Shown here piece after piece: positions 19,312 through 25,148 of a DNA stretch of 64,000 nucleotides. The notes under the pieces are model-generated. The model did not search any database, was not told the DNA's origin, and saw only the letters and a list, made by a program, of their open reading frames with translations. Within the stretch, counting starts at the first letter, position 1. Every line of letters begins with the position of its first letter. The DNA is from Escherichia coli O127:H6 str. E2348/69 (GTDB taxonomy: Bacteria; Pseudomonadota; Gammaproteobacteria; Enterobacterales; Enterobacteriaceae), in assembly GCF_000026545.1 (NCBI RefSeq), contig NC_011601.1; one strand, written 5' to 3'. Position numbers and translations under genes: made by a program.

Positions 19312-19983
19312 ATGAAAACCACCCTCCCCCTCATCGCCAGCATCTCTGTTGATGAACAGAAAAACAGATTGATCGAATGCTTCCGGGAATATTGGGGCGT
19401 ACAGCAGATTAACGACCGCCATGACAACATTGCACTCCGCGTAGGCAAAGGTAAACATGGTTGCCACTTTATCTGGTCAGAAAAAAATATCGATATTCAT
19501 TATTACTGTGACCGTGAAATGTCGCCTCAGGAATGGTCAAAGATCGTGACGGTGATGACCGTCGCGCTGGATACCCCCATACCGCCCTATTATCTTGATA
19601 GAGATGAGAAAAGACATCGCACCACTTTGCGGAAAACACATCGCCGGGGAGACAATAGTATTGGATGTTTTATCTACCCCTACAAAGAAGAGGCAAATGG
19701 TGGGTGGGATTATAATGTTGAAAGTCTTTTCATTTACGAATGCGATTTCACGATACTGGCGGCAGGCATTAAGGCGTGCTATCCGCTCAATAATGGTGAA
19801 CGCGCGTTTGATTATACGAGCTGGAATGAATTTACCGTTGCTGAATGTGAGAGAATAATTTCGTCCTGGCTGGATGCAGGGCAAGAAAATGAGAGCTACA
19901 CGCCATTCATTCAATACGTGGTTGAATGGATGCAGCCCCTTATGCGGGAATATGACACGATTATGATTGAAGGTAATCTCTAA
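19312..19983 (+). CDS. Hypothetical protein (AT-rich orphan ORF, island gene 1)
   Basis: 223-aa ORF in a visibly AT-rich stretch; no domain recognised; stop overlaps stop of the convergent SNF2 gene. Confidence 0.55.
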   Translation: MKTTLPLIASISVDEQKNRLIECFREYWGVQQINDRHDNIALRVGKGKHGCHFIWSEKNIDIHYYCDREMSPQEWSKIVTVMTVALDTPIPPYYLDRDEKRHRTTLRKTHRRGDNSIGCFIYPYKEEANGGWDYNVESLFIYECDFTILAAGIKACYPLNNGERAFDYTSWNEFTVAECERIISSWLDAGQENESYTPFIQYVVEWMQPLMREYDTIMIEGNL

Positions 19984-22900
19984 TCCTGGCCTGCCCTGAA
20001 CAGCTCTTCCAGTTCATCATCCGTCATCTTACCCAACCACTGCTCGCCGCTGCCGACAGTCATCTCCGCCAGCGCTTTTTTATTTCTGATCATGTCGTTG
20101 ATCCGCTCTTCAAACGTCTCACGGGTCAACAGGCGATGCACCTGCACATTACGCTGCTGGCCGATACGATAGGCGCGGTCGGTGGCCTGCGCTTCCACCG
20201 CCGGGTTCCACCATAAATCGTAATGAATCACCTGGCTGGCGGCGGTCAGATTCAGCCCCGTACCACCAGCTTTCAGCGACAGAATAAAGTGGCGTACAGA
20301 ACGGTCATTTTGAAAACGTTCGACCTGCTCATCGCGCTTTTTGCGGCTTAAGCCGCCGTGTAAAAACAGGGGTTGTTCGCCATAACGCGCGGTAAGCCAG
20401 CTTTGCAGTAGTTCGCCCATCTCTTTGAACTGGGTAAAAATCAGCACCTTTTCTGTTGTCTCTTCAATGCTGTCCAGAAGATCCAATAACAGTTGCGCCT
20501 TGCCAGAAAGCGCCGCATCCATCTGCTTATTTTTCAGATAGTGCGCCGGATGGTTACAGACCTGCTTCAACGCCATAATCATTTGCAGCACCAGCCCCTG
20601 ACGCTGGAAGGCATCAGACTCCCCACGGATCACCTGCATCCCTTCGCGCACGACGGACGCATAAATTGCCGCCTGTTTAGTTGCCAGTTCACAGAAACGG
20701 TCGGTTTCAATTTTTTCGGGCAGATCGCTGATGATGGTTTTGTCCGATTTCAGCCGACGCAGCAAAAATGGCGCGGTTATGCGGCGAAAACGTTCAGCAA
20801 CCTGTTGATTACGATCCATCTGGATCGGTTTCTCAATCTCCGAAATAAACGTTTTTAGCGGCCCCAGATAGCCACGCAGAGCAAAGTCCATAATGCTCCA
20901 GTATTCTGCAAGACGGTTTTCCACCGGCGTACCGCTTAGAGCAATAAACGCATCGGCAGGAATTGATTTTGCAGCCTTCGTCTGTGCCGAGGCCGGATTT
21001 TTTAGATTTTGTGCCTCATCCGCCGCCACCAGACGCCAGTGCTGTTTCTTTAACGTTGCGGCATCGCTACGCACCACGCCGTAAGTGGTGAGCAGGATAT
21101 CCGGCATCTCATCGGACAACGCGCGCTTGCCGCCGTGGTATATCGCCGTCGTTAACGTTGGGGCGAAACGAGCGATTTCTCGTTGCCAGTTAGTCAACAA
21201 GGTGGTCGGCATGATAATCAGCACCTTACGCTCCGCCAGCGCGCCTGTCTCTTTTTGATGCTGAATGACAGCGATAAGCTGAAGCGTTTTCCCGAGGCCC
21301 ATATCATCGGCCAGGATGCCGCCGATCCCCAGCGCCAGGTTATGCGTCAGCCAGGCAAAACCCGTTTGCTGATAGGGCCGCAGCGTGGCGTTAAGAGAAA
21401 CGGGCTGAGAGGGCATACCAACCGAGGTCAATTGCCGAAGTTGCTCACGCGCCGCGCTATCCAGCATAATCGGCGTGCCTGCGTACTCACCGGACAACGC
21501 CGTCTGCGTTAGCGCCATGCCTTTAATGTCCGGTGGATTTAACAGCTTATTGCGCAGTCGGGCGATTTCGTCAGGGTCAAGATAGATAAACTGTTCTTTG
21601 AAACGTACAATCCCTTCGGCACTGTCAATGAGCGTTTCAAATTCAGTAACCGTCAGTTGCCTGTCTCCCAACGCAATGCGCCAGTCAAAATCGAACAGAT
21701 TTCCCAGTTGAAACCCGCTGCTGCCTCCCGCGCCGGAGGATGATTTCACCTGCATGCTGAGTCTGGGGCGTAATATTTTATCCAGCGCTTTCGGCAGCAA
21801 CGCCTGAATGCCCAGCATGCGAATAACGGGCAACGCGGTAAAGAGAAAATCCGGCAACGTTTGTGCGGTGAGGCGCAGCGCCTGCCGCCCTCCGGCACGC
21901 AGATACTCACACAACGGAGGGTAGAATTCCGCCAACATCGCCAGCGTTTGCAGGACGGCCATCCGTGTATTTTCGTAGCATTTTTGCCACAGAATATCCG
22001 CCAGCATCACTGGCGCGGGCTGGTCCGTTATTTTCACCGCCAGATGCAGCGCAAAGTCTTCCCCGGCTTCATCCAGCATAATCACTGGCGGCTGCTCGCG
22101 ATGCACCAGCGTCAGGCGCGACAGCCATTGTGCGATACTGGCGGCGCTGGCGCTTTCCCGTCGCGAGTCAAATGTCACCCGCCCGGTGAGGAAAAAGAGC
22201 TTGTCATATGGCGTATCGCCTTTCTTCAGGGGAACCGACTGTACCAACCGATCAAGCATCAGCGAGCACAAGGTTATAGCCTGCCGCTTGCCGGTAAGCG
22301 CCCAATCGTTAAAAGAGATCAACCCGTCCGGCAATTGTCGGGCGACCTGTTCGAGCAAATTATCGACCGTTACATCCAGCGTAGCTGGAAGCCAGCGAAC
22401 CAGCGTCTCACTTTCACAGGAAAAAACCTGTGGCATAACTGCGCCTTTCGCCAGCAGATGAACAGCGAATTGCCAGGCCAGGTGTAAACCTGCGACGGAA
22501 GGTTGCAACATCTGCAAGCGTCGCGGGGTCAAATTTTTCAGCTCCCCCAGCAGCGTGGAGAGATCTTTAAGATGCGTAATACCCTGCACGCAACAGCGGT
22601 AATCCCCGTCAATTCTGAGCATCGGGGATTCGGTTGCTCCCAGCGCCCACTGCATCTGGCTCTCTGATTCAGGAACAATTTTTTGCAATTGCTCCCCATA
22701 ACGAACAAGGCGTGCCAGTTGTTGGCTGTAAACCTGATGAAAATCACCAAAGGGATAAAAAACCGGATTATCGGGCAACAGTCGCAACAGATCGTGGTGT
22801 AAAGCAGGGATCAGGGTAAAATCCAGCCCCTGATTCGCTTTTTCCTCATGAACAAAAGGTTGATTTGCGAATAGCGCTGACAGCGAGGGGGGAGTGATAA

Positions 22901-23429
22901 AGATCTTTTTGTCGATGTCCATTCCACGCTGGCGCAATGCGGTCGGCAAATCCAGACCATGTAGCGCAAAAACCAGAAACGGATCGCTGTCGATCTGGCG
23001 ACTGATCAGATAAATCACTGCGGCCAGATGTTTACAGGGCACGGCCCAGTCGGGGCAGTTGCAATCCATATGAAGATCTTTCCAGCTCGCGGGGAAAATC
23101 TTGATATTCGTCTCATTCGCCAGATCCAGCACCGTTGGCGAAAGTTCGCGATTTAATAACTGCGAGATAATCAGCGGATCGTTGACCAGCGCATCCAGCA
23201 GGCGTTCTTTTTCCTGCCCGGAAAACGGTGGAACGGTAATTTCAACCGTATAAATGTACGATCCCCGCACTTGCGCACGGATGTGACCGTCCTTGATATC
23301 AAGCTTTTGCACCGCCCCTTTATTCGCGTAGGTACGACCGCGCGGTAAGCGGTTGTCGGCATCAATATGCATCAGCGCGTTTAACCACTGCTGACCCCAC
23401 CAACTCAGTCCATAAGTCTGGATCGCCAT
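19980..23429 (-). CDS. SWIM zinc-finger / SNF2-family (Swi2/Snf2) ATPase-helicase fusion (island gene 2)
   Basis: 1149-aa ORF. N-terminus has SWIM CxC...CxH motif (DCNCPDWAVPCKHLAAVIY); C-terminal half has SNF2 motif I (ILADDMGLGKTLQ), motif II (DEAQNLKN) and helicase-C motifs (LSLKAGGTGLNL, WWNPAVEAQATDRAYRIGQ). Confidence 0.85.
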   Translation of the reverse strand: MAIQTYGLSWWGQQWLNALMHIDADNRLPRGRTYANKGAVQKLDIKDGHIRAQVRGSYIYTVEITVPPFSGQEKERLLDALVNDPLIISQLLNRELSPTVLDLANETNIKIFPASWKDLHMDCNCPDWAVPCKHLAAVIYLISRQIDSDPFLVFALHGLDLPTALRQRGMDIDKKIFITPPSLSALFANQPFVHEEKANQGLDFTLIPALHHDLLRLLPDNPVFYPFGDFHQVYSQQLARLVRYGEQLQKIVPESESQMQWALGATESPMLRIDGDYRCCVQGITHLKDLSTLLGELKNLTPRRLQMLQPSVAGLHLAWQFAVHLLAKGAVMPQVFSCESETLVRWLPATLDVTVDNLLEQVARQLPDGLISFNDWALTGKRQAITLCSLMLDRLVQSVPLKKGDTPYDKLFFLTGRVTFDSRRESASAASIAQWLSRLTLVHREQPPVIMLDEAGEDFALHLAVKITDQPAPVMLADILWQKCYENTRMAVLQTLAMLAEFYPPLCEYLRAGGRQALRLTAQTLPDFLFTALPVIRMLGIQALLPKALDKILRPRLSMQVKSSSGAGGSSGFQLGNLFDFDWRIALGDRQLTVTEFETLIDSAEGIVRFKEQFIYLDPDEIARLRNKLLNPPDIKGMALTQTALSGEYAGTPIMLDSAAREQLRQLTSVGMPSQPVSLNATLRPYQQTGFAWLTHNLALGIGGILADDMGLGKTLQLIAVIQHQKETGALAERKVLIIMPTTLLTNWQREIARFAPTLTTAIYHGGKRALSDEMPDILLTTYGVVRSDAATLKKQHWRLVAADEAQNLKNPASAQTKAAKSIPADAFIALSGTPVENRLAEYWSIMDFALRGYLGPLKTFISEIEKPIQMDRNQQVAERFRRITAPFLLRRLKSDKTIISDLPEKIETDRFCELATKQAAIYASVVREGMQVIRGESDAFQRQGLVLQMIMALKQVCNHPAHYLKNKQMDAALSGKAQLLLDLLDSIEETTEKVLIFTQFKEMGELLQSWLTARYGEQPLFLHGGLSRKKRDEQVERFQNDRSVRHFILSLKAGGTGLNLTAASQVIHYDLWWNPAVEAQATDRAYRIGQQRNVQVHRLLTRETFEERINDMIRNKKALAEMTVGSGEQWLGKMTDDELEELFRAGQD

Positions 23430-24790: not shown

Positions 24791-24830
24791 AAATTGTTTT
24801 GCGCCAGTTTGCTCATGGGAGCATTTAAGA

Positions 24831-25148
24831 ATGTCAGACACATCACATAAAGAAAGTAAATGGCACCCTCATCTGGATATGAGTTTTCTGGGATGCGTGC
24901 TGGCATTTGCTATGGAAGTTTATTTTGAAGAACACATTTTTATTCCCCACGGTGGAGGAGCAAGTTTTGGATTGATAGCACTCATCGTTATTAATTTTAT
25001 GACTATCCCGATAGTGATCGTGGTAACAACACTATTTTGTTATTTATTTGAAATTTCGCGAAAGCGTGTAAATCGTATTTTGATATTCCTGTTGGCATGT
25101 ATTTTGACTATTATCGGTTTGTTTATCGCATATCCCGTCGGGCAATAA
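24831..25148 (+). CDS. Small membrane protein (AT-rich, island gene 4)
   Basis: 105-aa ORF with 3 predicted hydrophobic helices; AT-rich. Confidence 0.5.
   Translation: MSDTSHKESKWHPHLDMSFLGCVLAFAMEVYFEEHIFIPHGGGASFGLIALIVINFMTIPIVIVVTTLFCYLFEISRKRVNRILIFLLACILTIIGLFIAYPVGQ

Follow-up and report, generated by a model that had tools for sequence, protein, structure and literature searches.

Strain-variable intergenic islets of Escherichia coli, which carry toxin-antitoxin or immunity genes, lie between core genes, are mostly empty and vary in their cargo. The stretch described here, the hemF-eutR islet of E. coli O127:H6 strain E2348/69 (RefSeq assembly GCF_000026545.1, contig NC_011601.1), shares all of these traits but has no integrase or mobile-element backbone. 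It is a 5958-bp insert, bases 19269-25226 of the window (by which we mean the whole stretch of 64,000 nucleotides that was analysed), lying between the stop codons of hemF (19268) and eutR (25227). A 6.1-kb part of the window aligned at 100% identity to the chromosome of this enteropathogenic strain. RefSeq annotates four genes in the insert: an open reading frame (ORF) for a soluble 223-residue protein of an unnamed small family (ORF223; 19312-19983, plus strand), a gene for a 1149-residue SNF2 helicase (19980-23429, minus strand), a gene for a 420-residue DUF1963/TYPP-domain protein (23528-24790, plus strand, taking the RefSeq start and not the 23513 start of the longest ORF), and ORF105 (24831-25148, plus strand), which encodes a 105-residue protein, a small membrane protein by its hydropathy, that we provisionally assign to the YpfK family from the PF26378 matches of its homologues. 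ORF223 and ORF105 are the outermost genes, and both are hypothetical proteins in RefSeq. The original prediction gave these two ORFs the positions and lengths that we confirmed, and proposed that they are accessory components of an SNF2/DUF1963 module within a mosaic, horizontally acquired cassette. Our analysis suggests instead that the stretch is probably an old hemF-anchored variable locus built of at least three units, each of which persists without the others, and not a four-part system.

Described relatives of the helicase and the DUF1963/TYPP protein

Among described families, the helicase comes closest to the SCO1167/SCO6262 family. Its best NCBIfam match is the SCO1167/SCO6262 family helicase model NF058637 (679 bits, residues 305-1144), and it has the same domain order, DUF8276/SWIM, DUF3670, SNF2 and Helicase_C, and is likewise encoded by a stand-alone gene. 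However, 679 bits is below the equivalog cut-off of 1200, indicating that the protein is a related protein and not an equivalog. RefSeq names it an SNF2-related protein. Pfam gave matches to SNF2-rel_dom (3.5e-64), DUF3670 (4.4e-26) and Helicase_C (3.5e-23), together with a SWIM match (0.0038) whose 17.2 bits are under the 19.6-bit cut-off; the precomputed annotation of an identical helicase cluster lists PF26921, PF12419, PF00176 and PF00271, with DUF8276 at the N-terminus. At least 2171 relatives were found with E <= 1e-100, the nearest being 81% identical in Salmonella and the nearest outside Escherichia and Salmonella merely 52-55%. The YwqB/YwqA pair of Bacillus subtilis may be a split version of a SWIM-DUF3670-SNF2 helicase. 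YwqA itself has been described as a little-studied Swi2/Snf2 translocase and an interaction partner of RNA polymerase (PMC7385302). Our literature search on DUF3670 found nothing relevant. Judged from its domains and its solitary occurrence elsewhere, described below, the helicase would form one unit of the islet (unit 3) as a stand-alone SWIM-DUF3670-SNF2 DNA translocase.

The original prediction treated the genes as a defence module, and several anti-phage systems do contain proteins to which the helicase can be compared. Its SNF2 ATPase core (residues ~661-1144) aligns well with ZorD of Zorya, DpdE of Dpd, DrmD of DISARM and BrxH of BREX, but its N-terminal two-thirds is unmatched and it has no Mrr-like nuclease domain. 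The PADLOC matches to ZorD (2.5e-124), DpdE and DrmD span only this generic core, and the scores against the corresponding NCBIfam models were 296 bits for ZorD (cut-off 1500), 91 and 65 bits for DrmD (cut-offs 950 and 610) and 56 bits for DpdE (cut-off 500). The ZorABC, Dpd, Drm and Brx partner genes are absent from the neighbourhood, where the three neighbour proteins have no PADLOC match and the flanks are hemF and eutR. The module reading was not borne out, because the matches are limited to the SNF2 core and fall under the family cut-offs, partner genes are lacking and the components do not co-occur.

The TYPP domain is defined by a GGxP motif, a conserved Q and optional CxxC pairs, and has been proposed to be a protein-protein-interaction or chaperone-like domain (PMC4275035). 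Burroughs and Aravind reported in 2014 that TYPP domains of the YwqG family are sometimes fused to transmembrane regions (PMC4275035). Members of the family are further expected to have a two-repeat, strand-swapped all-beta fold. The 420-residue islet protein shares with this TYPP/DUF1963 (YwqG) family a Pfam match above the cut-off (25.6 bits against 23, E 1.9e-5, residues 364-411 only), the GGxP motif, the Q and the CxxC pairs. Its translation holds SQLGGHPTWIQD, in which GGHP represents the GGxP motif and is followed by WIQ with the conserved Q. Nineteen cysteines are present, including those of CPNC, CPEC (twice) and an N-terminal CKNPDC...CMPC, which we read as an N-terminal zinc ribbon. 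This zinc ribbon and a long unmatched middle region are additions relative to the described family, and a PDB sequence search with the protein returned a weak zinc-ribbon resemblance only. The described fusions of TYPP to transmembrane regions have a parallel in the islet, where the separate membrane protein YpfK is encoded directly 3' of DUF1963.

Separability of the islet genes across genomes

We determined the occurrence of the four families in 5426 complete E. coli genomes. The full islet was present in 8 of them, and these carriers form two identity groups, one of 99.9-100% (three E2348/69-type records, a pig isolate and a monkey isolate) and one of 97.5% (three isolates). The ORF223 family was found in 11 genomes, 3 of which have no SNF2 gene. 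YpfK was found in 25, always directly after DUF1963 (25/25), and 17 of these 25 have no helicase.

The hemF sites of individual genomes showed the same separability. One E. coli locus (L003) has only DUF1963 and YpfK, and another (L002) has the same two genes preceded by a TacA antitoxin and a GNAT (TacT-like) toxin, which lie between hemF and DUF1963 (8068-8860 of that locus). A third E. coli locus (L004) and an Escherichia albertii locus (L006) carry DUF1963 with an ORF223 homologue (59% identical) and, on the eutR side, Tli3-family immunity genes of the type VI secretion system (T6SS) with Sel1 and TPR genes (11007-12600 in L004; 8760-10426 in L006). Salmonella loci have ORF223 only (L005), YpfK only (L008 and L013), or a 5' remnant of DUF1963 followed by YpfK, ORF223 and SNF2 (L007). 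In Kluyvera and Escherichia fergusonii the order is hemF, DUF1963, YpfK and then maeB. The 98-bp divergent spacer between SNF2 and DUF1963 (23430-23527) marks the left limit of the DUF1963-YpfK unit: similarity starts at 23544-23573 for E. coli loci whose content is confined to DUF1963 and YpfK, and at 23509 for E. albertii.

Outside the hemF site the helicase is solitary. The viaA and ravA genes form one operon in E. coli; in Xenorhabdus and in an Enterobacterales metagenome-assembled genome, an SNF2 homologue (53%) stands alone on the opposite strand between them (L079, 4410-11036; L080 and L081, 4392-11120). A solitary homologue was also found in Cupriavidus, among the relatives of 52-55% identity. 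Homologues of ORF223, YpfK or DUF1963 were found within 7 kb of SNF2 in none of 62 further, mostly Bacteroidota loci. This set, obtained by a contig scan with the SNF2 N-terminus (26-40% identity), serves as a negative co-occurrence set and not as evidence of origin, and its bias toward Bacteroidota arises because the scan depends on exact peptide words.

Since the four families are separable across loci, the four genes do not make up a conserved system. The proposal that the two outer ORFs are accessories of an SNF2 module fails, because both occur without the helicase at the hemF site and the helicase is solitary elsewhere. Co-occurrence did hold in one part: ORF223 and YpfK are separable from SNF2, but YpfK follows DUF1963 in E. 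coli, E. fergusonii and Kluyvera alike, and DUF1963 with YpfK is the only robust pairing in the islet. The term mosaic was well chosen, as the units differ in composition and occur separately elsewhere.

A single horizontally acquired defence-type cassette, with SNF2 and DUF1963 as its core and ORF223 and ORF105 as sensor or effector accessories, would explain why the four genes are contiguous and occur together in 8 E. coli genomes, why the SNF2 core scores well against the ZorD, DpdE and DrmD models, and why toxin-antitoxin and T6SS-immunity genes are found at the same site in other strains and the small genes are AT-rich. But the 8 genomes are two identity groups, so they are not 8 independent co-occurrences; each family was found without the helicase, and the helicase was solitary in all other contexts examined. 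In addition, the PADLOC matches cover the core only, the NCBIfam defence models score far under their cut-offs, and the islet has no mobility signatures and differs from its Salmonella copy about as much as core genes do. The comparison of co-occurrence largely refutes this explanation, and we consider it very improbable.

The most serious rival to separable units is a narrower one, in which ORF223 is a dedicated partner of SNF2 (an inhibitor or a DNA-mimic-type regulator) that has outlived deleted helicases, with DUF1963-YpfK as unrelated cargo. It is serious because ORF223 and SNF2 lie next to each other and converge in E. coli as well as in Salmonella; in E2348/69 their stop codons overlap by 4 nt (19980-19983), and a terminator scan found no terminator-like structure between them. 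However, intact ORF223 genes persist where SNF2 is absent, in Salmonella (a 287-member cluster), E. coli and E. albertii, and are kept by purifying selection, and no ORF223 relative was found in any of the 62+ SNF2 loci. Two remote ORF223 homologues lie in unrelated contexts, one beside polC/rimP on a Firmicute-like contig and the other adjoining an HD+AAA_33 gene in the neighbourhood of SusC/SusD-type genes; neither has an SNF2 gene close by. The fold similarity to the DNA mimic DMP12 that would speak for such a regulator is also weak (Foldseek E 2.0, probability 0.21). Taken together, these observations make a dedicated partnership doubtful, though it keeps somewhat more weight than the other alternatives.

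Age, position and composition of the islet

All Enterobacteriaceae loci of the ORF223 and YpfK families that we examined lie directly 3' of hemF, so that the position is shared across genera. The hemF gene (18369-19268, plus strand) encodes oxygen-dependent coproporphyrinogen oxidase (Pfam Coprogen_oxidas, E 1.7e-135, and RefSeq) and is a core gene and the left anchor of the locus. On the right, the AraC-family regulator gene eutR (25227-26279, minus strand; Pfam HTH_18 and HTH_AraC, and RefSeq) is the boundary in the E. coli and Salmonella loci; E. fergusonii and Kluyvera have no eut operon, and their right neighbour is maeB. E. coli genomes with a match have it at one chromosomal place each, and every E. 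coli locus inspected was at hemF-eutR. In K-12 the same hemF and eutR stops are only 5 bp apart and none of the 5958 bp is left.

Divergence between E2348/69 and the Salmonella locus L007 suggests that the helicase is old at this site. The synonymous divergence (dS) of SNF2 was 0.99, with a ratio of non-synonymous to synonymous divergence (dN/dS) of 0.12, and the dS of flanking core genes was 1.41 for hemF, 1.46 for eutR and 1.27 for amiA. Because the SNF2 value is close to those of the flanking genes, the helicase has been at the site for roughly as long as Escherichia and Salmonella have been separate. The identity of DUF1963 roughly tracks the species tree: 87-95% for the E. coli and E. fergusonii copies, 79-82% for E. 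albertii and 57-60% for Kluyvera. Pseudogene fragments of DUF1963 stand beside the surviving Salmonella genes, comprising residues 401-420 after ORF223 in L005, residues 1-55 before YpfK in L007 and residues 283-407 after YpfK in L008 and L013, which shows that a larger ancestral cluster has been eroded. Purifying selection acts on each of the four genes, with dN/dS of 0.12-0.34 (0.13-0.33 for DUF1963 and 0.14-0.34 for ORF105).

The last result bears on whether the two small ORFs are genes at all. They might be decaying or spurious frames in AT-rich filler DNA, without function: they are AT-rich, carry no functional annotation and are absent from >99% of E. coli, and decay is visible in the YpfK of L013, which lacks 12 residues, and in one split DUF1963 of E. 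fergusonii. Full-length copies nevertheless exist in Escherichia, Salmonella and Kluyvera, the low dN/dS is seen at saturated dS, many alignment columns are invariant, AlphaFold2 predicts the C-terminal domain of ORF223 with high confidence, and YpfK is preceded by a Shine-Dalgarno-like sequence. We find this explanation scarcely credible.

The islet bears no mobility signatures. RefSeq annotates no integrase or transposase in it, an Rfam scan of it gave 0 matches and hence no tRNA, and a search for flanking repeats found only short pairs at chance level. Plasmid and phage matches were limited to the SNF2 part, with 66-69% identity to plasmids and only short motifs in phages. With the Salmonella homologues at the same site and a SNF2 dS comparable to that of core genes, these results do not support a recently acquired cassette. 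The presence of the cargo families at the same position in Salmonella and Kluyvera, with core-like divergence, argues for retention and loss over repeated insertion. According to this reading, all islet genes would have been at the site before the split of Escherichia and Salmonella and would then have been lost in different combinations, in an order that we infer from the present loci, with most E. coli having lost all of them. Our literature search for hemF together with eutR, a hemF hotspot or defence found nothing relevant.

Several observations weigh against an old locus of separable units. The gene order differs between lineages (ORF223, SNF2, DUF1963 and YpfK in E2348/69; truncated DUF1963, YpfK, ORF223 and SNF2 in Salmonella L007), so that differential loss requires an ancestral duplication of DUF1963-YpfK or rearrangements. 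The 5-bp empty site of K-12 could be read as the ancestral state, with a later insertion in the carriers. ORF223 copies are 52-60% identical, and the ~55% seen even within Salmonella is lower than vertical descent alone would lead one to expect, a hint of old allelic lineages or of exchange through recombination in the flanks. A functional link between ORF223 and SNF2 is possible, given their convergent arrangement in E. coli and in one Salmonella lineage; the fold matches of ORF223 are weak and non-specific; and the sampling of gene contexts outside E. coli comprises about a dozen loci.

As to the ancestral order, a single-copy arrangement was rejected, since DUF1963 remnants occur both 3' (L005, L008 and L013) and 5' (L007) of surviving genes. 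A two-copy ancestor fits these remnants, yet the E2348/69 DUF1963 groups with the other Escherichia copies.

Base composition had been part of the argument for horizontal acquisition, both outer ORFs having been described as visibly AT-rich. GC content and GC content at third codon positions (GC3) were expressed as z-scores against the 69 ORFs of at least 90 residues within the 64-kb window, and a codon-usage proxy was built from 22 of its core ORFs. ORF105 matches the description fully: its GC content of 0.371 is the lowest among the 69 ORFs (z -3.2) and under the value of 0.396 that marks the 1st percentile of 318-nt windows, its GC3 is 0.340 (z -2.65), and its codon-usage proxy has a z of -2.9 relative to core ORFs. 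ORF223 matches it only weakly. Its GC content of 0.451 is just under the 5th percentile (0.459) of 672-nt windows (z -1.6 among ORFs), its GC3 is 0.496 (z -0.85), and its codon-usage proxy (z -0.94) is about that of the SNF2 gene (-1.00); the low GC comes mainly from codon positions 1 and 2 and thus reflects amino-acid composition. The host-like composition ascribed to the helicase gene is correct (GC 0.535, GC3 0.604). Homologues have a GC content of 0.33-0.45 in the ORF223 family, of which the E2348/69 copy is the GC-richest, and of 0.365-0.47 in the YpfK family, in host loci of 0.50-0.56. Low GC characterises both families in all the genera that we examined and so gives no date for an import into E2348/69.

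The divergent spacer contains one sigma-70-like match (23466-23495, plus strand), in a region whose number of matches does not exceed that of shuffles; overall, the promoter and terminator scans found no more sites in the islet region than in shuffled sequence. Between the YpfK stop and the eutR stop, sequence inspection revealed a hairpin, GGCCGGAT-N14-ATCCGGCC (25189-25218), with a perfect 8-bp stem and a near-identical copy in the E. coli loci L002 and L003. Lacking a T-run, it was not reported by the terminator scan, and it is possibly a shared terminator.

Beyond eutR, the window contains a Mu-like prophage of ~35.7 kb (~27945-63660) inside eutC, which is split into two annotated pseudogene halves (~27507-27944 and ~63661-64000). 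Among the prophage genes are those for a Mu transposase, an AAA ATPase, Mor, a gpT-type head protein, a tail sheath, the baseplate and a DNA methyltransferase. The insertion thus breaks the ethanolamine-utilisation operon of E2348/69 at a distance of 2 kb from the islet.

Putative roles of the DUF1963-YpfK pair and ORF223

The DUF1963/TYPP zinc-ribbon protein and YpfK immediately 3' of it most likely form one unit (unit 1). In E2348/69, YpfK starts 40 bp 3' of DUF1963 on the same strand, with GGGAG located 8 nt before its ATG; over the loci as a whole the gap is 15-40 bp, and the pair is kept across three genera. The strand, the short gap, the GGGAG and the conservation in three genera suggest that the two genes are co-transcribed. 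ORF105 has a grand average of hydropathy of +0.97, with strong hydrophobic segments at residues ~41-77 and 78-105 and a weaker one upstream, which corresponds to 2-3 predicted transmembrane segments. Both outer ORFs had been called orphans, a label that probably does not suit ORF105: precomputed annotation places PF26378 (YpfK) on 18 of 19 homologues, including a representative that is 99% identical, although our own hmmscan of ORF105 returned no family. Its searches against Pfam, NCBIfam, PADLOC and PHROGs gave nothing above threshold, the two faint PHROGs matches (E 0.035 and 0.096) being to families of unknown function. Residues F19, G21, C22, E29, G42, G43, N55, C90, Y101 and P102 are invariant in the family. 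By analogy with the TYPP-transmembrane fusions (PMC4275035), YpfK most likely anchors the soluble, protein-binding TYPP product at the membrane or acts as its partner there. We found no paper on the YpfK family, and the DUF1963-YpfK pairing is restricted to Enterobacteriaceae and, as far as we found, undescribed.

DUF1963 also differs between full islets. Comparing E2348/69 with E. coli A37, which has the full islet too, DUF1963 gave a dS of 0.153, whereas ORF223, SNF2 and the flanks gave 0.015-0.05, and the 5' half of DUF1963 had only 91-92% nucleotide identity. The pattern has the look of an older allele or of a patch of recombination within the islet. Positive selection on DUF1963 was rejected as an explanation, as dS is raised but dN/dS is ~0.3, with a maximum of 0.7 in any segment. 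In one E. fergusonii assembly (L086, 5698-6960) DUF1963 is split into ORFs of 128 and 289 residues, and the residues missing from the Salmonella YpfK of L013 (8001-8294) belong to the second hydrophobic segment; both are signs of ongoing decay.

For ORF223 the orphan label stands as far as annotation goes, since the protein has no match in Pfam, NCBIfam, PADLOC or PHROGs, but a profile search of 1.84 billion representative proteins placed it in a small family of 27 representative clusters. Among 10 remote homologues there was no significant Pfam match except for a UBA-like N-terminus in one (P0048). AlphaFold2 predicts two alpha/beta domains (predicted local distance difference test score, pLDDT, 81.6 overall and 92.7 for the C-terminal domain): a TBP-like/KA1-like domain at the N-terminus (~1-90) and, in the C-terminal half, a conserved domain (~100-223) whose last residues are an invariant GNL. 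In an alignment of ORF223 with P0028-P0048, all members that reach the C-terminus end exactly in GNL. The remote members P0044, P0047 and P0048 have a different N-terminal region, so that the conserved unit is the C-terminal 125 residues. Conservation across the wider family is limited to D145, F146, T169, N172 and the C-terminal GNL, a pattern unlike an active site. A PDB sequence search with the family profile found nothing (best E 0.79). The fold matches were to YfbM (DUF1877), the Neisseria DNA mimic DMP12 and the CdiI of Burkholderia pseudomallei E479, with only 6-12% identity and scores in the generic-fold range, and all three lack a counterpart of the N-terminal TBP-like/KA1-like domain. 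ORF223 (unit 2) is probably an autonomous soluble protein of two domains that shows no catalytic signature; its most likely role is that of a factor for protein binding or of an inhibitor type.

Another reading takes ORF223, perhaps with DUF1963 and YpfK, for orphan immunity or antitoxin-type genes in a small conflict-gene hotspot, which would protect against toxins delivered by competitors. The ORF223 homologue stands beside Tli3-family T6SS immunity and Sel1/TPR genes in L004 and L006, a TacA/TacT pair occupies the same junction in L002, the genes evolve fast, are short and AT-rich and fall into deep allelic lineages (as in the low identity among ORF223 copies), solitary ORF223 homologues occur in varied contexts, and CdiI and YfbM are among the weak fold matches. 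However, no toxin was seen in L004 and L006, the other ORF223 contexts are without such genes, and ORF223 matches no described immunity family by sequence or fold. We consider orphan immunity unlikely. YfbM/DUF1877 was also considered as an immunity family, but our search returned no paper in support, and the idea was dropped.

The same partial loci could also be seen as what is left of something larger. It is conceivable, but we give it little credence, that DUF1963/TYPP, YpfK and ORF223 are remnants of an ancient hemF-anchored operon for a cytosolic zinc-ribbon/TYPP protein, a membrane protein and a soluble binding protein, an undescribed conflict or stress module of Enterobacteriaceae, in which ORF223 might also adjust the activity of the adjacent SNF2 translocase in the manner of a DNA-mimic-like inhibitor. 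If this were true, the partial loci would be decay stages of a three- or four-gene system and not independent genes.

Adjacency and AT-richness in a single genome suggested a cassette, and the comparison of about a dozen related loci dismantles that reading. Under the preferred reading of an old variable locus of separable units, the islet is an ordinary, though old, strain-variable locus of uncharacterised genes, and carries modest weight unless a phenotype is found. ORF223 represents a small unnamed family whose fold is confidently predicted yet uninformative. What remains is a rare, old presence/absence polymorphism beside hemF that is common to Escherichia, Salmonella and Kluyvera, and, in the DUF1963-YpfK pair, a candidate membrane partner for bacterial TYPP proteins.

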